DNA from: an uncultured Acidobacteriota bacterium
GTDB taxonomy: Bacteria > Acidobacteriota > Thermoanaerobaculia > UBA5066 > Gp7-AA6
DNA length: 64,000 bases
Direction: 5' to 3'
Assembly: GCA_963724465.1 (NCBI GenBank)
Contig: CAVRUT010000003.1
Location: 142,854-206,853 of the forward strand
Shown: piece by piece, positions 18,252-38,610 of the stretch
How positions within the stretch are numbered: the stretch's first letter is position 1
Layout: each line of letters starts with the position of its first letter
Program-made: the position numbers and the translations under genes
The notes under the pieces: model-generated
What the model saw: only the letters and a program-made list of their open reading frames with translations
Database searches by the model: none
What the model was told of the DNA's origin: nothing

Positions 18252-20864
18252 CTACTTCACGCCCTCGGCGAGAAAGAGGTCCGAGAGGATGCGGTTGTAG
18301 GAGTAGACGTAGGCCTTGCCGTCCGGCGTGATGCGGGGCGGCGAGATCGCGTTGATGCCGGCCGGGTCGGGAGGCGTCAGCTCCTTCCAGAGCTCGCGCT
18401 TCCCCGTCGCCAGGTCGAGCCGCGAGACGCGCGCGGGATACTCGCCGCGCTTGTAGATGTACAGAGACTTTCCGTCCTCGGTCCAGCCGAGCGGAGTCTC
18501 GAGGCCGACCAGCGCCGGGATCGGCGTCGGCTCGCCCCCGTCGATCGGATAAAGGTAATTCCGGCGGTCGGGTCCGACCGCGACGACGAGCTTCCCGTCG
18601 CGCGAGACCGTGCCGTTGACGGCCCGATACCCCTCCGGGGAAATGGCTCGCGGCTTGCCGCCCTCGACGTCCCGCAGGTAGAGCCGGTTGCCGCGGCCCT
18701 TCTCGGATGCCGTCACGAGGATGCGCTTTCCGTCGGGAAGGAAGTCTGCACCGGACGCCATGAGGCCCTCGATGGGAAGCTGCCTCGGCTGCCCGGCGCC
18801 AGTCGGGAGCAGCACGAGCTTGCCGCCCGTGGTGATCCCGACGAACGCGGCGACCCAGCTGCCGTCGGGCGAGATCGAGAAGCCGGTCCCGTCGCCCAGC
18901 CGCACCGGCGGCGAGCCGTCCATGTCCCGCAGGTAGTTGGAGTAGCCGGGGCCTCCACCCTCCCCCGATTCCGAAAACGCGACCTTGCGCCCGTCGGGCG
19001 AGAGGGCAGTACACGCTGGACCAGTCCAGCCACGAAAGGTCGCGCTCCTTCTCGGCGCCGGGCGCCTTCCCCAGAATGCCCGAGCGCAGCGTGTCGTGAC
19101 AGATCAGGACCCGGCCGTCCCGGGCCACGTCCTGGAGCGTCAGGTTCCCGGTCACCCGGACGAGGAGCCTTTGCGCTCCCGCGGGAGTGACCGCCCAGAG
19201 GGCTCGATTGCCGCCGACCTCGGCCGCCGTGAACCAGATCTCGCTCGCGTCCGGCGACCACGCGAGTCCGCCCTCCGTCGCAAACTCCTTCGTCAGCGTC
19301 GTCTTCTTTCCCGAGAGGTCGACGAGGGCGACGGATCCGCCGTCGTCGCCTGCTGGCGGGATGGTCCATGAACGCGATGACGCCGCCCCTCGGGGACACG
19401 CGCACGTCGCTCAGCCACCCGCTCGTGTCGTAGAGGACCTTGCCGATCGGGCACTCGAGGCGTGCGCGGCCGGCCACCTCGCGGACGATGGCAAATCCCG
19501 ATCCGTCCGAAAGCCAGCTCGCGCTCTGGACGTCGTCCTGGATCTCACGCGGCGTCCCACCGCCCGTGATGCCGATGCGCGCCAGCATGCCAATGCGCTC
19601 GAAGGCGCCGGCCGAGCGCTGGTTGAGCCCGACCGCGAGCTCGCCCGGCTGCCGAGATCGCCAGGACGTCGGCGCCCTTCAGGCCGAAAGGCCGCGATTC
19701 CGGGCTGTCGAGCCGGGCGACGAAGATCTCCGACGGGCCGGCCCTCCCAGGCTCGCCGAGTAGAGGATCGTCTGACCGTCCGGCGCGAACCGGGCCGAGT
19801 AGATCTGGCCTCGCTGGAAGGTGAGCTGGCGGAACGACGGCAGCGCGTTCGGCCGCGCCTTCTTGCCGGCAGCGAAGGCGGCGAGGCCGACGGCGATCGC
19901 CAGCGCCGCCGCCACGAGCAGCGACGGCCAGCCGCTTCCGACCCGCGCGCATCGCCGCCGCCGCGGCCTCCGTGTGGTCGGTCGTCGACGACAGGGAGGC
20001 CTCCGAGAGGTGGTCGCGGACGTCCGCGAGGTCGCGCGCAAGGTCCTTGGTCGTTCCGAACCGGTCCTCCGGGTCCTTCGATAGGCAGCGCTCGACGATC
20101 CAGCGCACCGGCGCGGGCACGCGGGCGTTCAGCTGCGACACCGGCTCCGGCTCCTCGCGGATGATCGCCGTCAGCGTCTCCGCCGTCGTCCCGCGCTCGA
20201 ACGCGCGCTTGCCCGTCGCCATCTCGTACAGAATCGAACCGAACGAGAACTGGTCCGACCGAAAGTCGAGCGGCCGTCCCGCCGCCTGCTCCGGCGACAT
20301 GTACCCGACCGTCCCCATCACCATCCCGGGGCGTGTCGGCTCTCCCGCCGCCGTCTGAAGCGCCGAGACCTCCTGGTCCTCCGGCGTCATCAGCTTCGCC
20401 AGCCCGAAGTCCAGGATCTTGGCGTGGCCGTGCTTGGACACCATCACGTTGGCGGGCTTCAGGTCCCGGTGCACGATCCCCGCCGCGTGCGCCGCCGCAA
20501 GGCCCTCGGCGATCTGGGTCGCGAGCTCCAGCAGCTTGCGCGTCGGCACCGAGCCGGACGCCGTCAGGTCCTTCAGCGTCCCGCCCTCGACGAGCTCCAT
20601 CGCGATGTAGACCGTCTCGTTCGCCGCCCCGATGTCGAAGATCGTCAGGATGTTCGGGTGCGACAGCGCCGAGGCCGCCCGCGCCTCGCGCTCGAACCGC
20701 GACCGCCGCTCCGCGTCCGCGGCCAGCTCCGCCGGCAGCACCTTCACCGCCACGTCGCGCTTCAACCGCTCGTCCCGCGCCCGGTACACCTCCCCCATCC
20801 CTCCGGCGCCGATGGGCGCGAGGATCTCGTAGGGGCCGAGCTTCGTTCCGGCGGTCAGTGTCAT
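18252..20864 (-). CDS. receptor Ser/Thr kinase with PD40/TolB-like beta-propeller region, K1 (at least 5 frame breaks)
   Basis: Kinase region: [29 protein letters not shown]...HRDLKPANV...DFGLAK...GTVGYMSPEQ. TM segment in ORF 19679..20041. Propeller pieces in ORFs 18713..19588, 17770..19155 and 18252..18923, ending AYVYSYNRILSDLFLAEGVK. Confidence 0.85.
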
Positions 20865-20876
20865 CGGGCCGCGGGG

Positions 20877-20882
20877 ATTCTA
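20877..20882 (-). promoter_or_regulatory. -10-like TAGAAT 12 nt upstream of the K1 start
   Basis: The minus strand reads GGTTAGAATCCCCGCGGCCCGATG. The same motif lies upstream of K3 (25530-25535) and the K8 remnant (38620-38625). Confidence 0.3.
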
Positions 20883-20890
20883 ACCGGGGA

Positions 20891-22922
20891 TCACTTCGCG
20901 CCGGCCACGAGCTTTTGGAAGCGCGGGTTGCCGCGAAGGGCTTCGAAATTCGGATCGATCGCGAGCCACGCCGGCGTGACGTAGTAGCCGGGAGCCTTCA
21001 CTGCGAGCTCCAGCTGGCGGACGGCCTTCTCGGGCTCGCCGACGAGTGTGTCGACCCGCGCGAGCAGATGCTTGACGTAGCCGTTCTCGGGCCAGAGCTG
21101 CACGGCTCGCTCTCCTTCCCGGATCGCAGCCTCTTTTTCGCCGAGGTAGGCCAGCGCCAGTCCGAGAAAGGCGTGGAGCTGCGCGTCGTCGGGAGCGGAC
21201 CGGAGTTGCTCCTCGCTTGCCTTTCTCGCCTCCTCGGCATGGACGCGAAGGTTCCGCGCGTCGCCCTTCAGAGCATCCGCTTGAGCCATACAAATCCCCC
21301 AGGCGGCACGATTGCCGTCGAACGCGCTCGGAGTCAGGCGAAGGAGAAGCTCTCTCTGCTCGGCGTCGAGCACCCACGCCAGATCGCCGTAGCTCGCCAG
21401 GTAGGCCACGAGGGCCGTCGGCTCGACCACCCTGGCCGCCGTGGCGACCGTGGCCCGGGCTCCGGCGAGGTTCCCCTCCGCGAGGAACGACGTGCTCTTC
21501 AACCCGATCATCCCGAGGTGATCCGGCGCCAGGGCGAGGCCGCGATCGAGCACCTCTCTTGCCTCCGCATCGCGCCGCGCGAATGCGAGCATCCGGCCGA
21601 ACAGATAAAGCACAGCCACCGAGCGGGGGTCGAGGCGCTCGGCCTCGCGAAAGCGCTCCACAGCCGCGTCGGGCTGGGTCTGCGTGCGCGCGATGCCGAC
21701 CAGGGCGGCCACGTTCGTGGGCGCCAGTCGCTGCGCTTTCGTGTACTGCTCCAACGCGTCCGCGTGGCCGATGAACCACTCGTAGTCGCCGCGAGCGAGG
21801 TACCCTTCCGGACGGTCGGGGGCGATCGCCACGGCCCTCTCCGCCGACTGACGGGCACGCTCGGCCAGGTCGGGCGTGGGTGCGGAGAACCTGTAGAGAA
21901 GGCTGGTCGCCCGCGATATCTGGGCCCAGCCGACGGCAAATCCGGGATCGAGCGCCACGGCCTGCTCATAGAAGCCCAGCGCCTTGCGCAAACTGGGCGG
22001 ATCGTTGACGCCCATCCCCCGCGACGCCTCCTCGCCTTTGAGGAACGCGTCGTAGGCGGCGAGGTTGCCAGTCGGCTTTTCGGACAGTCGCTTCTCCTCG
22101 CTCGCCCCGAGGGCTACGCCGAGCGCCTGCGCGACACGCGACGCGATGTCCGATTGCACCTGGAAGACGTCCGTCAGCGCCGCGTCGAACGGTTGCTGCC
22201 ATCGCGAGGTCGGGGCCGGCCCGCCCGACACTTCCACGAGCTCGGGACTGACCTCCACGCGGCTTGCCGTGCCCTTCTGCCAGCGCACGGTCGCCGTCAA
22301 GAGATAGCGCACGCCGAGCTCGTCGGCGATCTGCTTCGGCGTCTTCGTGGTCTTCCTGTACGGCGTCGAGCTCGCCCGCGCGATCACCTCCACGCCCGGC
22401 AGGGTCGTGAGCTTTCCGCGCACCGCGTCGGAGATGCCGTCGGCGAAGTAATCGTCCTCGGCCGAGCCCAGGTTCTCGAATGGCAGAACGGCGACGCGCT
22501 TGTGGCCTCCCCCTTCCACCGCCGCACGGCGCGGCGCCCGCTTCGTGGGCGCGAGCCAGACCCTCGGCGACCTGCGGCGCGATCTGGAGCAGTTCTTGAT
22601 CGGCAGCGGGCCGCTCGCGAGCAGCTCCCGCAGCGTCGTCCCGTCCACCAGCTCCATGGCGATGTACGGACACGCCGCTCTCGCCGCCGATGTCGTGGAT
22701 CGTGACGATGTTGGGATGGTTCAACGCCGAGGCCGACCGCGCCTCCTTCTCGAACCGCCGCAGCCGCTCCTGGTCCGACGCCAGCGACTCCGGCAGCACC
22801 TTGATCGCCACCTCGCGCGCCAGGCGACTGTCACGCGCCCGATACACCTCCCCCATCCCGCCTACGCCCAGCGGCGCGACGATCTCGTAGGGGCCGAGGC
22901 GTGTCCCGACCGCGAGCGTCAC
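20891..22922 (-). pseudogene. chimeric gene K2: kinase N-lobe remnant joined to a TolB-N-like plus TPR module
   Basis: [29 protein letters not shown]...VAIKVL...[13 protein letters not shown]...[19 protein letters not shown], then no HRDLKPxN, DFG or TM. The sequence continues [31 protein letters not shown]...VIARASS...[12 protein letters not shown] followed by ~400 aa of TPR-like repeats. At least 3 frame changes lie between 22640 and 22530. Confidence 0.7.
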
Positions 22923-22952
22923 AAAGCCTCAGAACCTTTCCCCGTCCGGCAC

Positions 22953-25516
22953 CTACTTCGCGCCCTCGACGACGTACAGGTCGTCCGCAATGATGCGGTA
23001 GTACTGGTACGCATAGGACTCGCCGTCCGGTGCCATGACCACGTTCGCCACGCCACGAACGCCGGTCGAGTCCTGGGGCGCGATCTTCTTCCAAGGCTCT
23101 CTTCGGCCCGTCGCGAGCTCCAGCCGGTCGATGACCGTCGGAATCTCTCCGGACCGCCAGATGTACAGGAATCGGCCGTCCGCGCTCCACTGGGAGAGAT
23201 GGTCCTCCAGCATCAAAGGAGCGCCGGGGACCGTCGTCGACTCCCCACCCGAAAGAGCCGCGATTCTGAGCTGCCCTCCCTTCGTCGCATAGACGAAGCG
23301 GTTACCGTCCGGCGACAGGGCCATCGCCCGGTCGGTGTAATCGTCGGCCCGCACCGGGGTGGGTTTACCCCCTTCCGGGCCGACGAGGAGAAGGGGATGG
23401 CTGGCGTTGTCCGGAGCTCGGACCAGGATCCCTTTCCCGTTCGGGAGCAGCCACGCCCACTTCGGCTCGACACCCTCGACCGGGATCTTCTTCAAGGTTC
23501 CCGCGCCTGTCGGGATCATGATCAGTTCGCGAGGCGGTCCATCCAGCAGAGTCAGCACCCATCGGCCGTCGGATGAAAGGCCAAGGGTGTTACCTTCGCC
23601 CAGGCGTACCGGCGGACTTCCATCCGTCTTCTGGAAGTAGATTCCCATGTCCTCCCCTCCTTCGGAGAAGAGGAGGAACTTGCCATCCTCCGAGATGAGC
23701 ATCGGCTGAGGTTGCGGAGGTCGCCCGAGCTCTCGCTCGCGATTCTCGCCCCGAGGCTGGCACGAGATTTCCCCGCGCCACGCACGTTGCTCGATGAGAA
23801 GGCGGCCATCGGTTGCTACGTCGTGAAGGACCAGTCCAAGACCAAAAGGAATCAGGACCCGACTCCGCCCTGACAATGACACCCCGCGAAGCGCCTGCTG
23901 GCGCTCCGAGGGACCCCCGACAAATAGGATTTCGTCTCCTCGCGGCGACCAGGCGAGCCCGTTCATCCACGGCATCTTCAGGATGTCGCTGCGCTTCCCC
24001 TTCCGGTCGTACGACGTGATTGTGCCGCCTTCGTTGCAAGCCACGAGATCTCCGTTCGGCGAGACACGAATGATGTTGAAGTCGTCGTCTTCGGCGAGAA
24101 CGGTTCCGATGGGATACTGGAGCTGGCTCTTGCCCTTCGGCATGGCAACGACTACCGCCAGATCCTCGCCGTTGGGGGCCCAGTCTGCTCCGACAACCTC
24201 TTCGAGGATCTCTCGTGGCGTGCCACCCGCGATGGGAACCCGCGCGAGGAGGCCGAACGGCGCCCACAGGTGGGACTTGAAGACCAGGACCGCGAGCTCG
24301 CCTTTGGAGGACACGCTCATCACGTTCGCTCGCGAAAGGCCGATCGGGCGCGACTCCCCGGAATCCGTGCGGACCGAGAAGATCTCGAAGGGCTTTCCGT
24401 CCCAGGACGCGGAATAGACGACGGTCCTTCCGTCTGGCGCAAAGCGCGCCGTCAGCACGTCGCCGCGGCCGAATGTCAGTTGTCGGAAGGACGGTACGTC
24501 GGTCGTGCTTCGCCGCGCCGCGAGCCATCGATCGACCAGGACGGTCGCCAGAATCAGCGCGACGGCTGCGCCGATGGCGCCGAGGACCGGGAGAGCCAGC
24601 CGGCGTCGGGCGGGGCCTGCGGTGGAGAGGGATCCGCTCCAGGTCGCCTCGGAAAGGTGATCGCGCAGTGACGACAGGTCTCGCGCAAGGTCTTCGGTGG
24701 ACGCGAATCGCTGTCGCGGCTCTTTCGCGAGACAGCGCTCCACGATCCAGCGCAGCGGCGCAGGCGTCTGGGGGTTCGTCGAGGCGATCGGCTCGGGCTC
24801 GTCGTTGAGGATCGCCGCGAGCGTGTCGATCGGCGGTCTTATTCTGGAACGCGCGCTTGCCCGGTCGCCATCTCGTACAGGATCGATCCCAGCGAGAACT
24901 GATCCGATCGAAAGTCCAGCGGCTGTCCGCTCGCCTGCTCCGGAGACATGTAGCCCTACCGTCCCCACCACGACGCCCGGCGTCGTCCCCGTCATCGTCG
25001 GCAACTGCGACGCCTCGTCGCTGCCCGACCCGGTCGACGACAGCTTCGCCAGACCGAAGTCCAGGATCTTGACGAGCCCGTCCTTCTTGACCATCACGTT
25101 CTCGGGCTTCAGGTCCCGATGGACGATGCCGGCCTCGTGGGCTCTGGCCAGGCCCTCCGCGATCTGGGGCGCGATCTGGAGCAGCTTCTTGATCGGCAAG
25201 CGGTCCGCTCGCCAGCAGCTCGCGCAGCGTCGTTCCGTCCACCAGCTCCATGGCGATGTAGGACACGCCGTTCTCGCCGCCGATGTCGTGGATCGTGACG
25301 ATGTTGGGGTGGTTCAGGGCCGAGGCCGACCGCGCCTCCTTCTCGAAACGCTTCAGCCGCTCCTGCGTCCGACGCCAGCGACTCCGGCAGCACCTTGATC
25401 GCCACCTCGCGCGCCAGGCGCGTGTCCCGCGCCCGGTACACCTCCCCCATCCCGCCTGCACCGAGAGGCGACAGGATCTCGTAGGGGCCGAGCCTCGTTC
25501 CGGCAGAGAGAGCCAT
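22953..25516 (-). CDS. receptor Ser/Thr kinase with PD40/TolB-like propeller, K3 (about 4 frame breaks)
   Basis: [29 protein letters not shown] (ATG 25516), [66 protein letters not shown], propeller to [20 protein letters not shown]. Breaks near 25375, 25205, 24950 and 24850. Confidence 0.85.
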
Positions 25517-25580
25517 CGGGTTGCGGGAAATTCTATGCCTGGACCGTGGCATATCCTTGGCGCACTTTCGCGAGGACACG

Positions 25581-27800
25581 ATGAAGCCGATCTGCCGAGG
25601 CGCCCTGCTCCTGCTGCTCGCCGCGAGCCCGCTCTTCGCCCAGAGCCCGAAAGACATCACGGTCGCCTGGGCCTACTCCGACGACGGGCAGGCGGTCGGG
25701 AAGGTGCCGAAGACCTTCTGGACCTCGGGCGACGACGTGATCCTTCTCGACGAGCGCGAAGCCGCGGCGCGAGCGCGGCGCTCGAGCGCGTCAAGGCCTC
25801 GACCGGCGAGCGGCGGCCGGCGGTCGACCGGGTCGCCGCGCGCGCGAGCCTCGACGAAGCTCCTCGGCGGCGCGACGCCTCCGGAGACCTTCCCCTGGCC
25901 CGACTCCTTCGACGCGGCCGGCCGTCAGGCCGTCTACGTCCTCGCCGACGACCTGTCTTCTGCTCGACCTCGCGACTTCGCGCTTCGAGCGCCTCACGCA
26001 GACGCCCGAGAAGGAGTCGGTCGCCCGCCTCTCGCCCGACGGCCGCAGGGTCGCGTTCGTGCGCGGCAACGATCTCTGGGTCTACGACCTCGCGACGAAG
26101 GCCGAGACGCGCCTGACCTCCGACGGGAGCGCCACCGTCCTGAACGGCGCCCTCTCCTGGGTCTACTGGGAGGAGATCTTCGATCACGCCGAGGCGGGCT
26201 ACTGGTGGTCCGACGACTCGCAGGCGATCGCCTTCCTGAGAACCGACGAGGAGGGCGTCGATCTCGTCACCTTTCCCGAAGTTCTCGCCGGCGGTGCCGG
26301 AGATCCTGACGCAGCGCTATCCGAAGGCCGGCAACAAGAATCCGGCCGTCCGCCTCGGCATCGCCGACCTCGCGACCGGAAAGACCTCGTGGATGAGCGA
26401 GGCCGCGGTACGAATACATCCTGGGCGTGCGGTGGCTGCCCGACGGCCGCGCCGTGGCGGTCCAGACGACCGACCGGCCTCAGACGCGTCTCGACCTCTG
26501 GCTCGTCGCCCGGGACGACGGCCGCGACCAGGCACGTCCTGACGGACCTCGACGACGCGTGGGTCAATCAGAAGGAGCTGCAGTTTCTCGACGGCGGGAA
26601 GAAATTTCTCCTGACCTCCGAGCGCGACGGCCACACCCACCTCTACCTCTACGACATCGACGGCAACCTCCTGAACGCCGTGACCCGCGGGCCCTGGTCC
26701 GTCCGCGGCCCGTCCGGGCTTCTACGGCGCACCGCTCGGGCTCGGCCTGGATCGACGAGTCGGGCGGCTGGGTCTACTTCACGTCGCTCGAGAAGTCGCC
26801 CGTCGAACGCCACCTCTACCGGGTCCGTCTGGACGGCACCGGGATGCGCCGCCTGACACACGAGGATGGCACGCACAGGATCACGATGAGCCCGGACCGG
26901 CGTTTCTACCTCGACGAGTACTCGCGCCACGACGCGCCGCCCTCGCTGATTCTTTACGAGGTGGGAGGCGTCGTGCGCGCCACGCTCGCCGCGCCGCGGA
27001 CCGACCTGGTCGCGCCCTTCGGGTTCCAGAAGGCCGAGATCTTCACCGTTCCCGCGCCCGACGGCTTCGCGCTGCCGGCCCGCATCCTCAAGCCGCGCGG
27101 CTTCGACGCGTCGACGAAGTACCCCGCCATCGTCTACATCTACGGCGGCCCGGGCGCGCCGACGGTCAACGACTCCTGGGACTACTCGTTTGCCGGCAAC
27201 GCGCTCTTCGATCAGGTCCTCGCGGCGCGCGGCTACGTCGTCTTCTCGGTCGATCCGCGCAGCGCCACCGGCCAGAGCAAGACGCTCGAGAACACGATCG
27301 TCCGAAAGATGATGACCGACGGCGAGCTGAACGACATCGTTGCCGGCGTCAAATGGCTCAAGGCCCAGCCGTTCGTGGACCCCGCGCGCGTCGGCGTGTG
27401 GGGCTGGAGCGGCGGCGGAACCGACACGCTCCTCGTCATGACGCGCTCGCAGGAGTTCAAGGCCGGCATCGCGGTGGCGCCGGTCACGGACTGGCACTTC
27501 TACGACACCAAGTTCACGGAGACCTACATGAAGACGCCGGCGGACAACCCCGAGGGCTACGCGCACTTCTCCCTCGTCCCGCGCGCGAAGGACCTGCACG
27601 GGCGGCTCATGCTCGTCTTCGGCACGTACGACGACAACGTCCACCCGCAGAACTCGTGGAGCTTCGTCGACGAGCTCGTCAAGGCCGGCAAGCCCTTCGA
27701 CCTGATGGTCTACCCGATGCGCAAGCACACGATCGACGACCGCCCGGCGCGGATTCACCTCTTCGAGAAGATGCTGGAGTTCTGGAAGCTGTACCTGTAG
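25581..27800 (+). CDS. S9-family dipeptidyl-peptidase IV-like serine peptidase (at least 7 frame breaks in the N-terminal half)
   Basis: Signal peptide [27 protein letters not shown]-like pieces ([43 protein letters not shown]) are scattered over three frames between ~25750 and ~26740. A continuous catalytic domain carries GVWGWSGGG. Confidence 0.85.
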
Positions 27801-27849
27801 GGTCGTCGCCTCCGCTTCGCTGTTGATTTCGAGCCGCCCGGGTTCTACG

Positions 27850-28008
27850 CGCACGCGGCGCGAGGAGTCTCCGCGAGAGCAGCGGAGGAGCCTCGCGCCG
27901 CGGGAGCGAGCGCGAAGCGAGGGGTCAGGCGTCCGGTCGAGCCCGCATCCGGGCGAGCCGGACGCCGGTGCGCCCGCAGGGCGCAGATGCCTCGCTGCGC
28001 GCGAGCGA
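27850..28008 (+). repeat. ~160-bp three-hairpin intergenic element, copy 1
   Basis: Aligns with 38377-38536 and 58669-58837. Shared core CGAGGGGTCAGGCGTCCGGTCGAGCCCGCATCCGGGCGAGCCGGACGCCGGTGCGCC. Confidence 0.85.
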
Positions 28009-28011
28009 CGG

Positions 28012-30600
28012 TTACTTCACGCCCTCGACGAGATACAGGTCCGAGAGCGCCGTCGCGTAGGAGTAGGCGTAGTTGCGGCCGTCCCGCGTCATGCGCAGTC
28101 CGTAAAGGCCGACGATTCCCGTCAGCTCGGCCGGCATGATCTCCTTGATCCTTTCCTCTCTCCCGCTCGACAACTCGAACAGGACGAGGCGCGCGGGAAG
28201 CTCGCGCCCGCGCCTGACGTAGACCCAGCCTTCGCGCGCGCTCGCACTGACGACGAAGTCCGGCGGACCGAGGCCGGGAACCGCCACCGGCGTGGCGCCT
28301 TCGGACGAACAGAGGAACGTCCCGCCGTCCAGGCCCCGCGCGAGAAATCGCTTCGCGTCGATGGGTTGCACGCGTCGCCCGGCCCCACCGGTCCCGAATC
28401 CCTCGGGCGTGACGGGCCGGGGAACACCGCCCTCGGAATCGACGAGATAGACCCGGCTCCCGTGACCCGGCTCTGCCGCGATCATGAGGAAGCGGCGATT
28501 GTCCGCCAGCCAGACGGCGTCGCTGATGCGCAGAGTCGGGAACGCGAGCGGCTTCGCTTCGCCAGGGCCGGTCGGGTAGATGACGAGCTGCTGGTCGGTC
28601 GTCGGATGGACGATCGCGAGCACCCGCTTGCCGTCCGGAGAGATCGCCGTGGCGCTGCCCTCCCCGAGGCGCACGGCAGGAGATCCGTCGATCGACCGGA
28701 TGTAGCAGGAGTAGCCGGCCCCGCCGGCCTCGCCGGACTCGCTGAAGAGAACGCTCTTCCCGTCCTCGGAGATGTCGGCAATCAGGCTCCAGTCGAACCA
28801 GGAGAGGTCTTTCTCCCTGATCGTCGGACGGCCCGAGGGCGGCCAGGCCGATTCGATTCCGGCCGTCGCTCATGAGCACGCGACCGTCGGGCGACACGTC
28901 CTCGAGCGTCAAGGTGCCGGTCACCCGGACGAGCAGGCGCGGGCGACCCGAGATCGAGATGGCGCGCAGGCGCGGCTTGCGCCCACGTCGGCGGCCGTGA
29001 ACCAGACTTCGGACTCGTCGGGCGACCAGGCGAGCCCGAAACCGCTCGCAAAGAGCGGCGAGAGCCGCCGCACGTTGCCGGAGAGGTCGACGAGCGCCAC
29101 CGTGCCCCCGTCGTCGTTCGAGACCGGGTGGTCCAGGAACGCGATCCGGTCGCCCCGGCGCGAGAAGCGGGGGTTCCCGATCCAGCCCGTCGTCTCGTAG
29201 AGCACCTTGCCGGCCGGGTACTCGAGGCGGCGGCGCCCCTGAACCGCTCGCACGACGGCGACGCCCTTCCCATCCGGCGACCAATCCGCAAACTCGACGC
29301 CTTCCAGCATCTCCCGGGGAGCACCGCCGCCCGTCGCGGCCACGCGCGCGAGCGTCCCGGAACGCACGAAGGCTCCGGATTGCCGCGCGCGGAGCGCGAC
29401 GGCGACGTCTCCCGTGCGGCTGACGGAGAGGATGTCCGCCCCCTGCAACCCGAACTGCCGCGCCTCCGGGCTCTCGGGACTGCCGACGTAGACCTCTTCG
29501 GGGAGGCCGTCCCAGGCGGCGGCGTAAAGCACCGACTTGCCGTCCGAACCGAAACGCGCGTTCCAGATCGTCCCGCGCCGGAACGTGAGCTGACGAAAAC
29601 TTGGCGGCACGGGAGACCCCTTGCGGGCGTGCAGCCAGTACCCGGCCGCCGCGGCGGCGACAAGCCCCAAGATCGTGCCGAGAATCGGGACGCCGCGCCG
29701 GAGCGCGGACGGCCCTGCGGCCGCCGCCACGGCGGCTCCGGAAAGCCCCGAGAGCGCCTCCAGGTCGAAGGCGAGATCGCGCGCGGAGTAGAAGCGCTCT
29801 TCCGGGTTCTTCTCGAGGCAATGGCGAACGACCCGCTCGAGTCCCGGCTGCACGCTCTTGTTCGTCGCCGACAGGTCGGGAGGTTCCTCTCTCAGGATCG
29901 CCGACATCGTCTCGGCCGCCGAGTCCCGGTGAAAGGCCCGCTGCCCCGACAGCGTCTCGAACAGAATCGCGCCGAATGCGAAGATGTCCGAGCGCTGGTC
30001 GGCGGGCTTTCCCTTCACCTGCTCGGGCGACATGTACCCGAGCGTGCCCATCACGACCCCCGGCTCCGTGCCCGCGGACGCGGTGGGCAGGTTCGTCTGC
30101 TGTTCGGCCTGCGCTTCGGTTTGCGTCAGCTTCGCCAGGCCGAAATCCAGGATCTTGACGCGCCCGTCGTTGGTCAGGAACAGGTTCTCGGGCTTCAGGT
30201 CCCGGTGGATGATCCCCTTCTCGTGCGCCGCCGCCAGCCCTCTGGCGATCTGCACCGCGTAGTCCGTCGCCTTGCGCACCGGGATCGCCCCGCCCGCCAG
30301 CCGCGCCCGCAGGGTCTCCCCTTCGAGCAGCTCCGTCACGATGTACGGCGACCCCTCGTGCGAACCGAGGTCGTGCACCGCCATGATGTTCGGATGGTTC
30401 AGTCCGCCCGCCGCCTGCGCTTCCTGTTCGAAACGACGCAAACGGTCCTTGTCCTGCGAATAGGAAGCCGGCAGCACCTTGATCGCAACGTCGCGCTTCA
30501 GACGCTCGTCCCGCGCGCGGTACACCTCTCCCATGCCACCCGCCCCGATCGGCCCGACGACCTCGTAGGGACCCAGACGCGATCCCGCAGACAGCGTCAC
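28012..30600 (-). CDS. receptor Ser/Thr kinase with PD40/TolB-like propeller, K4 (two frame breaks)
   Basis: GTG 30600 overlaps the K5 stop. [29 protein letters not shown]...HRDLKPENL...[28 protein letters not shown]. Breaks near 28975 and 28820. Ends [19 protein letters not shown]. Confidence 0.85.
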
Positions 30601-33182
30601 TTGACCCCTTCCACGAGAAACAGGTCCGAGAGCGTGCGGACATAGCCGTAGATGTAGGCCGACCCGTCCGGGGTCGGGCCCGGGCCGAGGCTCGAGACCC
30701 CCGCCGCGTCCGCCGGCATCACCGTGCGCCACAGCTCCTTGCGCCCCGTCGCGATTTCGAGGCGATACCCCTTCGACGGAGCCTCGCCGTTCCGATGAAC
30801 GTAGAGGAGCCTTCCGTCGGCGCTGCGCTGGTCTACGCTGTCCTCTGGCTCGAGCCCCGGTATCAGCTGCGGCTCGCCCCCGGAAAGCGGATAGAGGTAC
30901 CGCTTGCGGTCAGGGCCCCTCACCACGCACCACTTTCCATCCGGCGCCGTGATGCCGGCCCCCGTGTAACCCTCCGGTGTCAGGGGGCGCGGCTTTCCGC
31001 CGGTGAAGTCCCGAAGGTACAGCCTCGGACCATGTCCCGGTTCGCTCCCCGTGAGGAGAACCTGCTTGCCGTCGGGTAGGAAGGAGGCGCCGAACACGGA
31101 AATGCCCTCCTTCGAGAAGACTTTCGGTTCGCCCGCGCCGGTCGGGTAGGCCGCGAGCTGCGGGTCGGAGGCCGAGTGCACGATTGCCAGGGCCCACTCT
31201 CCGTCGGCCGACAAGTCCTGGCTGCTGCCCTCGCCGAGGCGCACCGCGGGCGACCCATCCGTCTTTCGGATGTAGACGGAATATCCAGCGCCGCCGCCCT
31301 CTCCCGTCTCGGAGAAGAGCACCGTCTTGCCGTCCGCCGATATCGCCGTGGGCAGCGACCAATCGAGCCACGTGAGGTCGCGCTCCTTCGATTCGCCCGG
31401 AGCGAGCGCCATCATCTCCGACCTGACGGTGTCGCGCGAGACCAGAAGCCGGCCTTCGCGCGACACGTCCTGAAGCGTCAGATTGCCGGGGACCCGAATT
31501 CGCAGCCGGCTCTTGCCCGACCGCGTGGTCGAGTAGACGGCGCGGTTGCCGCCGACTTCCGTGGCCGTGAACCAGATCTCCGAGCCATCGGGAGACCACC
31601 CGAGCCCCTGCGCCGACGCGAAGGGATGCGAGAGATTTTGCTTCTTGCCTGCACGATCCACGACGGCGACGGAGCCTCCGTCGTCGTTGGGCGTCGGGTG
31701 GTCGATGAAGGCCACGAGATCCCCGTCCGGAGACACGCGCAGGTGGCTGACCCAGGCGCTCGTCTCGTACAGGACCTTCCCGAGAGGAAACTCGATGCGC
31801 ATCCTGCCCGGAACGACACGCACGATCGCGAGGCTCTTGCCGTCCGGCCCCCAATCCGCCCACTCGACTTCCTTGAGGATGTCCCTCGGCGCGGCACCAC
31901 CGGCAACCGAGAGCTGCGCCAGCGTACCCGTGCGCCGGAAGGCGGCGCCCACGACCCGATTCAGCGAAACGGCCATGTCGCCGGATTTCGAGATCGACAG
32001 GACCTCAGCGCCGACGAGGCCGAACGGCCGTGACTCGGGGCTCTCGGGACGGCCGACGAAAATCTCCATGGGCTTGCCATCCCATGCCGCCGAGTACATG
32101 ACCGTCTGGCCGTCGGGTGCGAACCGAGCCGAGAAGATCTGGCCGCGGCGAAATGTGAGCTGGCGAAAAGTGGGTGGGGGCCGGTCGCCGGCCTTGCGAA
32201 TCGCGACGAAGGCAATCGTGCCGCACACGAGCGCGGTTCCGAGGGCCGTCGCGGCGAGCAGGAGCCAGGAAGGACGCTTCGTCGCCTCGCGCCCGGCCGC
32301 GGCCAGGGCGGCTTGCGGCGCGGAGAGCCCCGACAGGGCCTCGAGGTCGAAGGCGACGTCGCGGGTCGAGTAGAACCGTTCCTCAGGGTTCTTTTCCAGG
32401 CAGTGCCGCACCACGCGCTCCAGCCCCGGCTGCACGCTCTTGTTCGTCGCCGACAGGTCCGGCGGCTCCTCCCTCAGGATCGCCGACATCGTCTCCGCCG
32501 CCGAGTCCCGGTGGAACGCGCGGGCACCCGAGAGCATCTCGTACAGGATCGCCCCGAACGCGAAGATGTCCGACCTCTGGTCCGCAGGCTTGCCCTTGAC
32601 CTGCTCGGGCGACATGTACCCGAGTGTCCCCATCACGACGCCCGGCTCCGTCGCCGCCGCCGCAGTCGGAAGGTTCGTCTGCTGCGCCGCCTGCCCCTCG
32701 AACTGCGTCAGCTTCGCCAGGCCAAAATCCAGGATCTTGACGCGCCCGTCGTTCGTCAGGAACAGGTTCTCGGGCTTCAGGTCCCGGTGAATGATCCCCT
32801 TCTCGTGCGCCGCTGCCAGACCCTTGGCAATCTGCACCGCGTAGTCCGTCGCCTTGCGCACCGGTACCGCTCCGCCCGAAAGGCGCGCCCGCAGCGTCTC
32901 CCCTTCCAAGAGCTCCGTTACGATGTACGGCGACCCCTCGTGAGACCCCAGGTCGTACACCGCCGTGATGTTCGGGTGGTTCAGGCCGCCCGCCGACTGG
33001 GCCTCCTGCTCGAACCGCCGCAGACGGTCCGCATCCTGCGAGTACGACGCCGGCAACACCTTGACCGCCACGTCCCGCTTCAGCCGCTCGTCCCGCGCCC
33101 GGTACACCTCACCCATCCCGCCGGCGCCAATTGGCGCCACAATCGCGTAAGGACCCAAGCGAGACCCGGCGGCCAGGCTCAC
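30597..33182 (-). CDS. receptor Ser/Thr kinase with PD40/TolB-like propeller, K5 (intact)
   Basis: ORF 30597..33263, with the start placed at GTG 33182 overlapping the K6 stop (GTGA). Full kinase motifs, [25 protein letters not shown] and about 10 (S/A)PDG-type blades. Confidence 0.9.
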
Positions 33183-35752
33183 TTCACGCCATCCACGACA
33201 TACAGATCCGCGAGGCTCCGGATATAGGAGTACGCGTACCACCGCCGGTCTGGCGTGATCCAAACGGGGCCCACGGTTGTTATTCCGGCCGGATCGGGAG
33301 GAACCAACTCTTTCCAGAGCTCCCTTCGGCCGGACCGGATGTCGAGCATGAAGATCTTGGCGGGCACCTCGCCGCGCCGCCGCACGAGGAGTGACCGTCC
33401 GTCGTCCGTCCAGGTATCCGGAATGTCGCCCACGGTGAGGCCGGGAACCAGGACCGGCTCGCCTCCGTCGATCGGATAAAGGTAGAAGCGTTGATCCGGC
33501 CCGGTGACCGCGACGTACTTCCCGTCGGGAGATATGCCCTTCGAGAAGGCACGGTAGCCTTCAGGCGAGATGGCACGAGGCTTCGCATCTTCGAGGCCCT
33601 GCACCCACAGCCGCACGCCGTGATCGGGCTCGTTGGCGGAAAACAGGACCCGGCGTCCGTCCGGGAGCCAGGAGGCCTGGCCGATCCGCAGAGCGCTCGG
33701 AGGAAATGCCTTCGGCTCTCCGGTGCCGATCGGGTACAGCACGATCCGCTGAGTCGGGGAGTCTCCCACGACCGCCAGCGCGAGGCGCCGGTCGGGCGAA
33801 AGGCTGTAAACCGCCCCCGGACCCAAACGCACAGCCGGCGATCCATCGGCCTTTCGCACATAGGCCGAGTAGCCGGCGCCGCCGCCCTCCCCGCTCTCGT
33901 CGAACAGAAGAACCTGGCCGTCGGGCGAAAGATCCCGGACGAGCGACCAGTCGAGCCATGAAAAATCCCGCTCCTTGTCCGACCCGGGCACGAGTGCAGA
34001 AACGCCCTGGCGCGCCTTGTCCTGAATCATCAATGCGCGACCGTCCCGGGACGCGTCCTCGATCGTGAGACCGCCGGTTCCCTGGGCGAGCACTCGGACG
34101 CTTCCGGAGCGCGTTGCGGCATGCAGACCTCGATTGAATCCGACGGCGGAGCCCGTGAACCACACTTCGTTTCCCGAGGGCGACCAGCAAAGCCCCTGGG
34201 CACTGGCGAAGAACCCGGTGACCGTCCGGCGCTTGCCCGAGCGATCGACGATGGCCACGGAACCTCCGTCGTCGCCCTGGATCGGGTGATCCAGGAACGC
34301 GACCTCATCGCCCCCGGGCGAGATGCGCGGATGCCCGATCCAGCCCGCCGTCTCATACAACGTGTGGCCGACGGGGAACTCCAGCCGGACTTTTCCGCCG
34401 GCTTCCCGGACCACTGCCATGCTCTGGCCGTCCGGACTCCAGTCGGCCCACTGAATATCTTCGAAGATCTCCTTCGGCGCGCCTCCGCCGGTCATGCCGA
34501 GACGGGCGAGCGTGCCCGTTCGCGTGAACGGGATCGAGATGCGGCGGCCGAGCGAAACGGCCATGTCTCCCGACCGCGAAACGGACAGGACCTCGGCCCC
34601 GGAGAGGCCGAACGGCCGCGACTCGGGACTGTCGAGCCGGCCGACGAAGATCTCCATCGGCTTTCCGTCCCAGCTCGCTGAGAAGAGAATCGTCTGGCCA
34701 TCCGGCGCAAACCGCGCCGAGCCGATCAGGCCGCGGCGAAACGTGAGCTGCCGGAAGGACGGCGGCGAGATATGACCCGCCTTCTTGCCGGCGACGTACG
34801 TGGCCGCCATGCCGGCAAGGGCCAGGACGATTCCCGCATAGAGCGGGACCGAGCGGCGGCGCGGCGCGCGCCCGGGCTCCGCCACCGCGAGGCGCGGCGT
34901 CGAGGCGCCGGAGAGCGTTTCCAGGTCGAAAGCCAGGTCGTGGGCCGAGTGGAACCGTTCCTCCGGGTTTTTCTCGAGGCAGTGCCGCACGATGCGATCC
35001 AGTCCTGGATGCACGTTCTTGTTCGTGGCGGAGAGATCCGGCGGCTCCTCCTTGAGGATCGCGGACATAGTCTCGGCCGCCGAGTCGCGCTGGAACGCCC
35101 GGCTTCCCGACAGCATCTCGTAGAGGATCGCGCCGAAGGAAAAGATGTCGCTGCGCGCGTCGGCGGATCTTCCCTTCACCTGCTCGGGGGACATGTAGCC
35201 GAGCGTTCCGAGAACCACACCGGGCTCCGTGCCGGCCGTCGGAACCTCCGTCTGCGGACCCTTCTCCTCGACCTGCGTCAGCTTCGCCAGGCCGAAGTCC
35301 AGGATCTTGACGCGGCCGTCCCTGGTCACAAATAGGTTCTCGGGTTTCAGGTCCCGATGCACGATGCCCTTCTCGTGCGCCGCTGCAAGGCCGTGGGCGA
35401 TCTGCAACCCATAGTCGATCGCCTTTCGGACGGGCAACGCGCCCCCCGCGAGCCGCGCCCGCAGCGTCTCGCCCTCCAGAAGCTCGGTCACGATGTAGGG
35501 CGAGCCTTCGTGCGATCCGAGGTCGTAGACGGCGGTGATGTTGGGATGGTTCAGACCGCCGGCCGTTTGCGCCTCGTTCTCGAAGCGCCGCAGCCGGTCC
35601 GCATCCTGCGAGAAGCTTGCCGGCAAGACCTTGACCGCGACGTCTCGCTTCAGCCGCTCGTCCCGCGCCCGGTACACCTCCCCCATCCCGCCCGCTCCGA
35701 TGGGCGCGACGACCTCGTAGGGCCCGAGCTTCGAGCCGGCGGCGAGACTCAC
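33179..35752 (-). CDS. receptor Ser/Thr kinase with PD40/TolB-like propeller, K6 (intact, 857 aa)
   Basis: ORF 33179..35752. GTG start overlaps the K7 stop. [66 protein letters not shown], then the propeller region. Confidence 0.9.
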   Translation of the reverse strand: MSLAAGSKLGPYEVVAPIGAGGMGEVYRARDERLKRDVAVKVLPASFSQDADRLRRFENEAQTAGGLNHPNITAVYDLGSHEGSPYIVTELLEGETLRARLAGGALPVRKAIDYGLQIAHGLAAAHEKGIVHRDLKPENLFVTRDGRVKILDFGLAKLTQVEEKGPQTEVPTAGTEPGVVLGTLGYMSPEQVKGRSADARSDIFSFGAILYEMLSGSRAFQRDSAAETMSAILKEEPPDLSATNKNVHPGLDRIVRHCLEKNPEERFHSAHDLAFDLETLSGASTPRLAVAEPGRAPRRRSVPLYAGIVLALAGMAATYVAGKKAGHISPPSFRQLTFRRGLIGSARFAPDGQTILFSASWDGKPMEIFVGRLDSPESRPFGLSGAEVLSVSRSGDMAVSLGRRISIPFTRTGTLARLGMTGGGAPKEIFEDIQWADWSPDGQSMAVVREAGGKVRLEFPVGHTLYETAGWIGHPRISPGGDEVAFLDHPIQGDDGGSVAIVDRSGKRRTVTGFFASAQGLCWSPSGNEVWFTGSAVGFNRGLHAATRSGSVRVLAQGTGGLTIEDASRDGRALMIQDKARQGVSALVPGSDKERDFSWLDWSLVRDLSPDGQVLLFDESGEGGGAGYSAYVRKADGSPAVRLGPGAVYSLSPDRRLALAVVGDSPTQRIVLYPIGTGEPKAFPPSALRIGQASWLPDGRRVLFSANEPDHGVRLWVQGLEDAKPRAISPEGYRAFSKGISPDGKYVAVTGPDQRFYLYPIDGGEPVLVPGLTVGDIPDTWTDDGRSLLVRRRGEVPAKIFMLDIRSGRRELWKELVPPDPAGITTVGPVWITPDRRWYAYSYIRSLADLYVVDGVK

Positions 35753-38335
35753 TTCATCCCCTCGACGAGCTGCAAATAGGAGAGCACGCGGAGATAGCTG
35801 TAGGCATACGTCTTACCGTCCGGCGTGACGACGAAACGGCTGACGGTGTTCAGGCCGGCCGCATCCGCGGGCGCCACTTCTTTCCAGAGATCCTTCTTCC
35901 CCGAGACGATGTCGTACCGATAGACCCGGGAGGGAACGCCGACGTTGGTCTGAACGAAGAGCGTGCGGCCGTCCGGCGAGAACCGAACCGGCCGGTCGCC
36001 CGTGCCGAGCCCCGCGAGCGGCGTCGGCTCGCCGCCTTCGAGGGGATAGAGGTAGATCCGCCGATCCGGGCCGCCGACCACCGCGGACTTCGAGTCGGGC
36101 GTGATCGTGCCGCGGAAGAGAGAATAGCCCTCGGGCGTGATCGCCCGCGGCTTGCCGCCCGCGAGGTCGCGGACGTAGAGCCGCGTGCCGTGCCCGGCCT
36201 CCGTCGCCGTGAAAACGATTCGCTTCCCGTCGGGAAAGAAGTCGGCGTTGAACGGGTCGAGGCCCTCCCGCGACAGAGCGCGCGGTTCGCCCACGCTCGT
36301 GGGCAGCAGAATGATCTGCGGCGCTGCCGGGTGGGCGAGCGAGATCGCCCAGTTGCCGTCCGGAGAAAAGGCTTCCGTGGCCCCTTCACCGAGGCGGACG
36401 GCTGGCGAACCGTCCATCTTCCGCAGGTACGCCGCGTAGCCCGGACCTCCGCCCTCTCCGGACTCGGTGATGAGAATCGCTCGTCCGTCTGGAGTCATGT
36501 CGGTCACGAGCGAGTAGTCGAGCCAGGAAAGCTCCCGCTCCTTCTCTTCTCCGGGGCCCCGTCCGAGGATGCCCAGGCGCGCGCTCTCGTTCGTCATCAG
36601 GACCCGCCCGTCCTTCGAGATGTCGCGGATCGTGCTGATGCCCGGCACCCGCCCGACCAGCCGCTCCTTGCCGGAGAGCGTGATGGCGTGCACGGCGCGG
36701 TTGAATCCTCCCTCGGCCGCGGTGTACCAGATCTCGCTGCCGTCCGGTTTCCAAGCGATCCCCTGCGCAGTCGCATAAAGGGGCGACAGGGCCTTCGCCT
36801 TTCCTGCCCGGTCGACGACCGTCACACGCCCCCCGTCGTCCGAAGGGTACGGATGATCGATGAAGGCCACGAGGTCCCCGCCGGGCGAAACCCTGGGGTT
36901 CTGGACCCAGCCGCTCGTCTCGAAGAGCACCTTGCCGATGGGAAACTCGAGGCGGTTCTTGACCCCGGCGTCGCGGACGATCGCGAGGCTCTGGGCGTCC
37001 GGGCCCCAGTCGGCCAACTGGATGTCGTCGAGGATGTCGCGCGGCGCCCCGCCGGCGATCGAGATGCGGGCCAGGCGCCCGGTGCGCGTGAACGGCTGCA
37101 CCCCTCGCCGATTGAGCGAGACCAGCATCTCCCCGGATTTCGAGATCGCCAGGACCTCCGAGTCGGCCAGGCCAAACGGCCGCGACTCCGGGCTCTCGGG
37201 CCGGTTGATGAAGATCTCGAAGGGCTTGCCCTCCCACGCGGCCGAATAGACGATCGTCTGGCCGTCCGGCGCAAAGAGGGATCCGCCGACCTCGCCGCGC
37301 GAGAACGTGATCTGGCGGAAGGACGGCGGGGCGACGTACGCGGACTTCCTGCCAGCGGAAAAGGCGAAGAAGCCCGCGATCGCGGCCGAAACGAGCGCCG
37401 TGCCCGCGATCAGAGGCCAGGTGCGGCGCTTGCCTTGCGCCGACACGTGCAGCGCTCCGGTCGTCGTGCCCGGTGTCGAGAGGCCCGACAGCGCCTCGAG
37501 GTCGAACGCGAGGTCGCGCGCCGACTCGAATCGCTCCTCGGGGTTCTTCTCCAGGCAGTGCCGCACGATCCGGTCGAGCCCCGGGTGGACCTCCTTGTTG
37601 GTCTGCGAAAGGTCCGGCGGCTCCTTCGTCAGGATCGCGGTGATCGTGTCGGCAGCCGACTCCCCCCGGAACGCCTTCTGCCCCGAGAGCATCTCGTAGA
37701 GGATCGTCCCGAACGCGAAGAGGTCGCTGCGTTTGTCGGCGGCTCGACCCCGCACCTGCTCCGGCGCCATGTATCCCATCGTCCCGAGGACGACACCGGG
37801 TTGGGTCCCCCCCGAGACCGTTTGCATGTCGGTCTTGCCGTCCTCGCCCGTTTCCGTCTTGAGCTTGGCCAGTCCGAAGTCGAGGATCTTGACCCGGCCG
37901 TCCTTCGTCAGGAACAGGTTCTCGGGCTTCAGGTCCCGGTGGACGATGCCCTTCTCGTGCGCCGCGGCGAGGCCCCTGGCGATCTGCACGGCGTAGTCGA
38001 TCGCCTTGCGCGGCGGCACCGCGCCCGCTGGAGATCCGCTGCCGCAGCGTCTCGCCCTCGAGGAGCTCCGTCACGATGTAGGGCGCCCCGTCCGCCGACC
38101 CGATGTCGTACACCGACGTGATGTTGGGATGGTTCAGCACGCCTGCGGCGCGCGCCTCCTGCTCGAAACGGCGGAGGCGATCGGCGTCCTGCGAAAAACT
38201 TGGCGGGAGAACCTTGATCGCCACGTCGCGGCCGAGCCGCGGGTCCTTCGCCCGGTAGACCTCCCCCATCCCCCCCGCTCCAATCGGCGCCAGGATTTCG
38301 TAAGGGCCCAGACGCGAGCCGGCGGAAAGCGTCAC
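35749..38335 (-). CDS. receptor Ser/Thr kinase with PD40/TolB-like propeller, K7 (one frame break)
   Basis: [29 protein letters not shown] starts at GTG 38335 (alternative ATG 38350). Break near 38020-38035, then [34 protein letters not shown] and an intact remainder (ORF 35749..38019). Confidence 0.85.
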
Positions 38336-38610
38336 TTCGGATCTCCGCATCCCGTACCCGCGGCACTCCTTCTGTCGTTCGCGGCGCGAGGAGTCTCCGC
38401 GAGGGCAGCGGAGGAGCCTCGCGCCGCGGGAGCGAGCGCGCAGCGAGGGGTCAGGCGTCCGGTCGAGCCCGCATCCGGGCGAGCCGGACGCCGGTGCGCC
38501 GCAGGCGCAGACCCCCGAGCGAAGCGCGAGCGACGGTCCCCCATCCCCCCCGCTCCGATGGGCGCGAGGATCTCGTAGGGGCCGAGGCGCGATCCGGATG
38601 TCAGCGGCAA
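38332..38610 (-). pseudogene. kinase N-terminal remnant (24 codons, K8) reading in frame through repeat copy 2
   Basis: ORF 38332..38610 reads (M)[23 protein letters not shown], then 68 codons encoded by the repeat element, ending ..GDPK-TGA. That stop overlaps the K7 GTG in the same AAGTGA junction used by K4-K6. Confidence 0.7.
38377..38536 (+). repeat. ~160-bp three-hairpin intergenic element, copy 2
   Basis: Aligns over its full length with copy 1 at 27850-28008. Confidence 0.85.

Follow-up and report, generated by a model that had tools for sequence, protein, structure and literature searches.

Two arrays of receptor-type Ser/Thr kinase genes are found on a stretch of 64,000 nucleotides (nt) from an uncultured Acidobacteriota bacterium (contig CAVRUT010000003.1, positions 142,854 to 206,853; hereafter the window, with a GC content of approximately 68-70%). 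We located the family by tblastn over this window with the intact K6 protein as query, and K6 was used as the reference for all analyses. Every family copy lies on the minus strand (E-values down to 0), with the positions and gene boundaries that an earlier sequence-only reading of the same DNA had given. Pfam searches and frameshift-aware alignment agree with that reading also on the plus-strand S9 peptidase gene that separates the two arrays. The family spans approximately 17.5 kb of the window, close to the 18 kb estimated before. The features are listed below (aa, amino acids; TM, transmembrane).

18255..20864, minus strand: K1, full member (kinase, TM helix, PD40 ectodomain of 12 blades); frame-corrected length 868 aa
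20891..22922, minus strand: K2, truncated chimera of which approximately 129 N-terminal residues match K6; not a PD40 member
22956..25516, minus strand: K3, kinase-TM-PD40 member, the most divergent of the six; 852 aa after correction
25578..27800, plus strand: S9 (DPP-IV-type) peptidase, located between the arrays and convergent with K4; its last open reading frame (ORF) matches Pfam Peptidase_S9 and DPPIV_N
28015..30600, minus strand: K4, kinase-TM-PD40 member; 862 aa after correction
30600..33182, minus strand: K5, intact member of 861 aa, with a GTG start that overlaps the stop of K6 (GTGA)
33182..35752, minus strand: K6, intact, 857 aa; kinase 12-268, TM helix approximately 302-325, ectodomain 330-857
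35752..38335, minus strand: K7, kinase-TM-PD40 member; 861 aa after correction
38537..38609, minus strand: 5' remnant of a kinase gene ([22 protein letters not shown]), not followed by a gene

The family thus comprises six full members (K1, K3 and K4-K7), one chimera (K2) and one remnant. The earlier count of seven genes is one too high, since the architecture of K2 is different and truncated. K5 and K6 alone have an uninterrupted ORF. Overall, the locus probably holds two operon-like arrays of six functional bitopic receptor kinases, from a family that is spread across the Acidobacteriota, with the breaks in the reading frames being assembly errors.

The genes of the second array are tightly packed. 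GTGA stop/start overlaps at 35749-35752, 33179-33182 and 30597-30600 connect K7 to K6, K6 to K5 and K5 to K4, respectively, the TGA stop being placed within the GTG start of the next gene. These 4-nt overlaps suggest that K7-K6-K5-K4 are translationally coupled. In the first array the intergenic gaps measure 26-30 nt. The tandem repeat has a period of approximately 2.58 kb, and a direct-repeat search registered a 73-nt segment from the start of the kinase gene in eight DNA copies (repeat family D11). With tblastn E-values down to 0 and eight registered copies, the repetition greatly exceeds what chance would produce. The eighth copy is the remnant at 38537-38609, which is 85% identical to the K1 copy and is matched by tblastn over 37 residues (38604-38506). 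No promoter-like sites were found in 17.5-28.3 kb, and the two terminator-like sites are below the shuffled expectation, the scan being uninformative at 70% GC.

By profile and motifs, K1 and K3-K7 are classified as Hanks-type Ser/Thr kinases. The four proteins scanned against Pfam Pkinase (PF00069: K1, K3, K5 and K6) score 171.7-176.9 bits, with K1 at 176.9 (cut-off 31.7). The Gly-rich loop, the VAIK Lys, HRDLKPxN, DFG and SPE are all present in K1 and K3-K7, and the catalytic motif residues are invariant across 57 homologues. A linker of approximately 50 aa connects the kinase to the TM helix: each of the six members has exactly one hydrophobic segment, around residues 302-333 (315-333 in K1). 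The layout of a Hanks kinase followed by one hydrophobic segment, as well as the conserved C-terminal tail, were recognized correctly before. The N-in/C-out topology is inferred from the lack of a signal peptide and from the need of the kinase for cytoplasmic ATP.

The part behind the TM helix is a predicted double propeller. Pfam PD40 (PF07676) scores 48.3 bits for K6, 27.5 for K5, 42.8 for K1 and 24.6 for K3 (cut-off 20.9), which agrees with the propeller repeats proposed earlier. The repeat type was therefore identified correctly, although the estimate of about ten blades was too low: the K6 ectodomain holds 12 PD40-like repeats with a period of 39-51 aa. A full-length AlphaFold2 model places the TM helix at 305-325 and is confident in the C-terminal half, which is all-beta. 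Because the kinase half of this model has low confidence, folds were compared using a model of the ectodomain only (predicted local distance difference test, pLDDT, 89.6; predicted template modelling score, pTM, 0.84), which is all-beta with approximately 45 strands. Its top Foldseek matches are double propellers: 2ymu (2e-16), Aip1 1nr0, tricorn 1k32 and LRP6 E3E4. TolB is matched at 1e-10 (4pwz, 4r40), and sequence alone ties the first blades to TolB as well (PDB phmmer, 7mx5, 3.7e-5). A precomputed Pfam Tricorn_N match on relatives also points to a double propeller. We conclude with high confidence that the 530-aa ectodomain is predicted to form two beta-propellers with 12 PD40-type blades.

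The proteins with two consecutive propellers per chain (tricorn protease beta6/beta7, Aip1, LRP6 E3E4 and Nostoc 2ymu; Foldseek E-values 1e-11 to 2e-16) resemble the K ectodomains in this arrangement, Aip1 being described as 'two seven-bladed beta-propeller domains'. They differ in identity (10-15%), with whole-chain TM-scores of approximately 0.3, in inter-propeller geometry and in a functional context that is unrelated.

In overall layout the K proteins resemble M. tuberculosis PknD, a receptor kinase with a beta-propeller sensor according to Good et al. 2004 (as cited in PMC6213207 and PMC2877116). In both, a Hanks kinase at the N-terminus is followed by a single TM helix and an extracytoplasmic propeller at the C-terminus, and a dimerization model and a repertoire of multiple paralogous Ser/Thr kinases (STKs) are common to both. 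However, whereas PknD has one six-bladed NHL-repeat propeller, the K proteins have 12 PD40-type blades in what are predicted to be two propellers, belong to another phylum and are encoded in tandem, apparently translationally coupled arrays. The kinase domain shows 33-36% identity to M. tuberculosis PknB and PknA. None of the NCBIfam equivalogs reaches its cut-off and none covers the kinase-propeller architecture; the PknD equivalog NF009651 scores 150 bits against a cut-off of 839, for the kinase part only.

The closest kinase domains are those of the PASTA kinases (PknB, PrkC, Stk1), which also have the bitopic layout and the ligand-induced dimerization model in common with the K proteins (PMC6213207). 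Their sensor, on the other hand, is a string of PASTA repeats binding peptidoglycan fragments instead of propellers. A PASTA kinase (PknB/Stk1) is ruled out by the score to NF033483 (308 bits against a cut-off of 450, kinase only) and by Pfam, which detects no PASTA domain. TolB has the PD40 repeat type and the periplasmic location in common with the K ectodomains, but consists of a single six-bladed propeller and an N-terminal alpha/beta domain, with neither kinase nor membrane anchor. A TolB (Tol-Pal) orthologue is likewise ruled out, given a score of 38.6 bits to the equivalog TIGR02800 (cut-off 343), the TM anchor and the kinase that replaces the N-terminal domain of TolB.

The ectodomain is not restricted to kinases. 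A search with it yielded 3257 clusters at 50% identity (E <= 1e-30), and among the matches listed the module is C-terminal in 150 out of 150, mostly in proteins of approximately 860 aa. Several matches of 650-700 aa have an N-terminal Trans_reg_C winged-helix domain in place of the kinase, with an ectodomain of approximately 45-48% identity. Four of these (P0246, P0255, P0258 and P0267) resemble membrane regulators of the ToxR/CadC type, carrying behind a TM segment the K-type 530-aa ectodomain (42-48% full-length identity), with DNA binding by Trans_reg_C as output instead of a kinase. P0302 is also among the Trans_reg_C-fused ectodomain proteins, and one protein carries winged helix, kinase and ectodomain together. 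None of the Trans_reg_C-fused relatives is encoded in the window. The double propeller is thus a portable module for extracytoplasmic input that can be combined with different outputs in the cytoplasm, and this reuse is the strongest indirect evidence that it acts as a sensor.

K2 had been counted as a kinase-propeller gene, but Pfam and alignment show an N-lobe plus TPR without the PD40 layout. Its large ORF matches TPR families only, and its 5' ORF matches positions 1-117 of the Pkinase profile only (38.3 bits). The kinase N-lobe (approximately 129 aa) runs directly into a [13 protein letters not shown] domain. In other words, the N-lobe is joined to the post-[12 protein letters not shown] and TPR part of a kinase-TPR receptor. 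Such kinase-TPR relatives form a separate family of more than 6000 members of approximately 880 aa, exemplified by P0122 (882 aa) with the layout kinase, TM helix, [10 protein letters not shown] module and TPR. More than 100 full-length relatives show 64-69% identity to the TPR part of K2. In the alignment to P0122, K2 covers residues 1-129 and 322-882; for residues 130-321 (approximately 192 aa) there is no DNA, which rules out K2 as a full kinase-TPR receptor of approximately 880 aa. Compared to full-length kinase-TPR relatives approximately 576 nt, from catalytic loop to TM helix, are gone. K2 consequently has no catalytic loop, activation loop, C-lobe or TM helix, and every motif from HRD on is missing.

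The origin of the N-lobe is clear from its identity, which is 117/129 to K3 against 73/129 to P0122. A 5' tract of approximately 370 nt is approximately 92% identical to the 5' end of K3 (25120-25516) and ends where the 576-nt gap begins, whereas the first 25 nt or so and the upstream region are unrelated to K3. Approximately three one-base indels are also present. From these alignments K2 appears to be a chimera that arose by recombination with K3 and internal deletion. Because the region from the catalytic loop through the TM helix is missing, K2 as encoded cannot function as a receptor. We regard both K2 and the 5' remnant as genuine products left behind when copies in the array recombined.

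The family is large: there are more than 8000 close homologues, the named ones being nearly all from Acidobacteriota, with Thermoanaerobaculia nearest (up to 81% identity). The paralogues in the window are 42-64% identical to each other, whereas closer counterparts are found in other genomes (loci numbered L001 onwards among the related loci retrieved). The K6 orthologue in L001 is 81% identical, K7 orthologues are 76-78% identical (the 78% one in L001), K5 has orthologues in L002 (79%) and L062 (78%), and the K4 orthologue L005_7858 is 69% identical. For K1 and K3 the best matches among the retrieved loci reach 56% and 47%. In a tree K4-K7 form one clade with the orthologues interleaved, and K1 and K3 fall in a deep separate clade. 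L001, a short-read metagenome-assembled genome (MAG), contains a tandem array of five genes that are all intact and have 4-nt overlaps, including the K6 and K7 orthologues. Tandem arrays of two to five copies are present in 21 out of 60 loci (within 10-kb flanks).

Since each of K4-K7 has an orthologue at 69-81% in other Acidobacteriota MAGs, their duplications predate the species splits, and the arrangement is a common one rather than a recent local amplification. The ratio of non-synonymous to synonymous substitution rates (dN/dS) between orthologues, to be read as a rough value, is 0.08-0.17 for the kinase and 0.13-0.24 for the ectodomain (0.35 for K4); for K7 against its orthologues it is 0.14-0.24. 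These ratios indicate purifying selection on both domains between orthologues. Paralogous kinases with an extracytoplasmic sensor (kinase, TM helix and PD40 double propeller) are upheld, but the proposal of the sequence-only reading that they are locally amplified and diversifying in place is contradicted by the orthologues elsewhere and by the selection acting on them.

The two halves of the proteins have different histories. Mean identity between paralogues is 67% for the kinase and 49% for the ectodomain, and the difference is more pronounced for K4 and K5 (92% against 52%). At third codon positions the K4-K5 identity is 50-85% in the kinase and 35-52% in the ectodomain, against an estimated saturation of approximately 41% at this third-position GC content, so that it is unsaturated in the kinase half only. 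The expectation that divergence would mainly concern the propeller therefore holds as a description. It does not hold as a matter of faster sensor evolution alone, as kinase exchange contributes. Kinase and ectodomain trees conflict with bootstrap values of 0.97-1.0: the K5 kinase is nearer to that of K4 than to the kinases of the ectodomain orthologues of K5 (0.994), adjacent genes in L003 (7379-12577) share their nearest kinase (1.0), and L001_17694, from the L001 array at 12578-20270, pairs with its neighbor by kinase and with the K5 group by ectodomain (1.0). Given this disagreement, the kinase similarity is in part attributable to exchange between neighbors. Recent gene conversion as sole cause of the 92% identity is ruled out, as dS is still approximately 0.7 and the exchange is not very recent.

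The tract shared by K3 and K2 and the orphan 5' remnant can be read as direct footprints of such exchange. A broader picture, which we put forward tentatively, is that the sensors are ancient, paralogue-specific and conserved whereas the 5' halves encoding the kinases are repeatedly exchanged or homogenized between neighbors by gene conversion or unequal recombination, K2 and the remnant being failed products. Together with the GTGA coupling this might point to selection for receptors co-expressed in fixed stoichiometry and possibly hetero-oligomeric, through which many inputs from the periplasm would converge on one phosphorylation output. We consider this picture because K4 and K5 share 92% identity in the kinase, the kinase of K5 is grouped with that of K4 and not with those of its ectodomain orthologues, L001 and L003 behave alike, and K2 holds a 370-nt tract derived from K3.

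As for the mode of action, a periplasmic ligand would bind the propellers and change the oligomerization of the receptor, by analogy with M. tuberculosis PknD and PknB. Judging from the propellers of TolB-Pal, tricorn and DPP-IV, our guess is that the ligand would most likely be a protein, a peptide or an envelope component or polymer. Oligomerization may then activate the kinase through N-lobe dimerization and autophosphorylation of Thr in the activation loop; conserved Thr residues are present in this loop within TxxTxPGxxxGTxGYMSPEQ. The active kinase would phosphorylate cytoplasmic targets, for instance FHA-domain proteins, with the adjacent FHA-GGDEF cyclase as one candidate. The propeller sensor of PknD, dimerization-driven activation and substrates with FHA domains have been reviewed (PMC6213207). 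Presumably each of K4-K7 reads a different ligand, since each has an orthologue under purifying selection. The kinase modules, being more alike and exchanged, suggest that many inputs lead to a shared output.

The genes surrounding the arrays are the following (where no strand is given, coordinates only).

16851..17924, plus strand: FHA-GGDEF diguanylate cyclase, convergent with K1 and approximately 330 bp beyond it; Pfam FHA 73 bits, GGDEF 144 bits
17934-18251, minus strand: GBBH-like_N (DUF971) ORF of 105 codons, starting directly after the K1 stop in the same frame
38646-39533: M48 peptidase; in L001 its place is occupied by a dodecin gene
39537-40756, minus strand: third MacB/FtsX permease (FtsX3), with two +1 insertions at approximately 40522 and 39867
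40832-42106 and 42207-43418: the other two MacB/FtsX genes, intact and syntenic with L001
43424-44671: RND adaptor, intact and syntenic with L001
58838-59999, minus strand: ftsZ, with a one-base insertion at 59225
60038-61450, minus strand: ftsA, in the cell-division (dcw) cluster
61360-62124, minus strand: ftsQ-type POTRA gene, in the dcw cluster
62306-63577, minus strand: Mur ligase, in the dcw cluster

The dcw cluster makes up the 3' end of the window (58838-63999, minus strand), and because it is in the same window the kinase arrays are placed in the core chromosome and not in a mobile element. At 10665-11795 (minus strand) adjacent ORFs for a Roadblock/LC7 protein and a small Ras/Arf-like GTPase resemble a polarity switch pair of the MglB/MglA type. 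A molybdopterin oxidoreductase ORF is located at 6301-9353 (plus strand). Ahead of the MoCoBD_1 and MoCoBD_2 domains its codon-usage frame plot changes frame three times, at approximately 7081, 7351 and 7621, which suggests further indel errors in the N-terminal part.

FHA domains bind phospho-threonine, and the FHA-GGDEF cyclase is on that inference a candidate phospho-threonine-dependent target of the kinases. Using tblastn against 81 related loci we ruled out the FHA-GGDEF, DUF971, ECF sigma, M48 and S9 genes as conserved functional partners. The S9 peptidase was found in two of these loci and M48 in one. No FHA match was obtained in any of the 81, the few matches to FHA-GGDEF covering the GGDEF half only. 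The S9 peptidase keeps its position beside the K4 orthologue in L005, and an S9 gene is also near kinases in L004. Such sharing of S9 and M48 is synteny among close relatives, not conserved linkage.

These neighbors bear on a different role for the propellers. Instead of sensing external signals, they might serve as docking or surveillance modules for a resident partner in the periplasm or outer membrane (compare TolB-Pal), in which case the kinases would report envelope integrity or be localized to an envelope machine. The likeness of PD40 to TolB (3.7e-5 with phmmer against the PDB, 1e-10 with Foldseek) would fit, and so would the envelope-related neighbors: three MacB/FtsX genes, the M48 and S9 peptidases and an OmpA-family protein, with the S9 position kept in L005 and L004. 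We nevertheless consider this role rather unlikely. A locus with at least six divergent paralogues, all having a conserved orthologue, would be better explained by a repertoire of different ligands than by one resident partner, the associations with neighbors hold among close relatives only, and the score to the TolB equivalog model remains far below its cut-off (38.6 against 343 bits).

A second question is whether the interrupted genes are functional at all. Frameshift-aware protein-to-DNA alignment to K6 revealed 14 one-base indels in the kinases (six in K1, five in K3, two in K4 and one in K7), nearly all of them +1 insertions. In K1 the +1 insertions are near 20027, 19750, 19731, 19652, 19351 and 19011. 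K3 has five between 25363 and 24831, of which two are directly visible in a nucleotide alignment as extra bases compared to the K2 copy of the tract. In K4 a deletion at approximately 28971 and an insertion at approximately 28819 compensate each other, leaving 50 codons out of frame with three in-frame stops. K7 has one +1 insertion near 38029. After correction the K1, K3, K4 and K7 proteins have zero stops and align end to end with K6.

Taken at face value, four out of six genes are interrupted, one of them (K4) with three in-frame stops, and K2 and the 5' remnant demonstrate that genuine degradation does happen in the array. It might therefore be argued that K5 and K6 alone are functional and that K1, K3, K4 and K7 are decaying duplicates inactivated by frameshifts. 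We regard such a pseudogene graveyard as very improbable, because the same type of lesion is seen in other genes of the window. FtsX3 contains the two insertions listed above, and the S9 peptidase has eight one-base indels (25779-26738) while still being free of stops and 80% identical to the orthologue in L005. In ftsZ, a single-copy gene, the one-base insertion at 59225 is a C. It lies between ...AAQAAIS and [10 protein letters not shown]... and puts the Tubulin domain and most of FtsZ_C into different frames. FtsZ is essential, and a cell cannot live with such a lesion. The frameshifted ftsZ hence acts as an internal control that argues for consensus indel errors in the window.

Moreover, the breaks depend on the sequencing technology. 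In the 81 related loci we counted frameshift-like junctions in family genes, separating MAGs of the 'MFD ... contig_N' type from short-read MAGs: 90 junctions are present in 172 kb of the former against 0 in 154 kb of the latter. The MFD MAGs were assembled from Nanopore reads alone and polished by a single Medaka round (PMC12313526). The 380-kb contig carrying the window fits a long-read origin. Also, the corrected frames are stop-free and 53-78% identical to relatives, and the dN/dS of 0.14-0.24 for K7 and its orthologues does not suggest decay. Approximately 24 out of 27 indels are +1 insertions, a bias not typical of mutation in bacteria, in which deletions are usually more frequent than insertions. 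Given that ftsZ, the S9 peptidase and FtsX3 are broken likewise, that the junctions are technology-specific, that extra bases in K3 are visible and that K7 shows a low dN/dS, we attribute the frameshifts and stops in K1, K3, K4 and K7 to long-read consensus errors and not to pseudogenization. The sequence-only reading had referred to frame-corrected proteins and left their pseudogene status open; the evidence here favors assembly errors.

A complete artefact, in which the assembly would have collapsed or expanded one or two real genes into the arrays, is effectively refuted: tandem repeats of approximately 2.58 kb are a classic site of assembly error, but the copies, being just 42-64% identical in protein and 46-95% in nucleotides (40-codon windows), are not confusable by an assembler, separate orthologues of each of K4-K7 occur in independent assemblies, and a short-read MAG has an intact five-gene array.

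Several observations weigh against our interpretation of six functional receptor kinases with frames broken by assembly errors. K5 and K6 have zero indels and K1 has six, meaning that the errors are clustered. The only hints of a Nanopore origin of the window are the 380-kb contig and the error pattern. Counts of Lys and Arg are similar on both flanks of the TM helix and do not discriminate between topologies by the positive-inside rule. TM-scores of the whole ectodomain to solved structures are only approximately 0.3, and its two-propeller arrangement is without a close solved counterpart. With dS near saturation the dN/dS ratios are rough, and the value of 0.35 for the K4 ectodomain might indicate that its nearest relative is not a true orthologue or that constraint is relaxed. 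Finally, the FHA-GGDEF gene is not kept beside the arrays in the 81 related loci.

Old paralogues of this kind have been reported before. In Candidatus Solibacter usitatus many old STK paralogues of less than 50% identity are described as being under purifying selection (Challacombe et al. 2011, PMC3174227), and PD40 is listed as a common partner of bacterial STKs, with the kinase-PD40 fusion catalogued (Tyagi et al. 2010, PMC2877116). We found no mention of tandem arrays in the portions of these two papers at hand, and our literature search returned no paper on the kinase/double-propeller family or its ligands. The locus is an ordinary instance of a common, annotated but uncharacterized acidobacterial receptor-kinase family and not a new type of system. 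The present analysis adds the correction of K2, the demonstration of assembly errors, the model of a 12-blade double propeller, the relatives fused to a winged helix-turn-helix, the operon structure and the modular exchange of kinases.

For annotation the lesson is that multi-copy families in long-read-only MAGs can mimic pseudogene graveyards through consensus indels, and that a frameshifted ftsZ provides a simple internal control. For the biology of the phylum, it matters that in soil the Acidobacteriota count among the most abundant bacteria, while the way in which they sense their surroundings is almost uncharted. As the family is large and its sensor is reused with at least two types of output (kinase and winged helix), it would be a reasonable target for ligand discovery.

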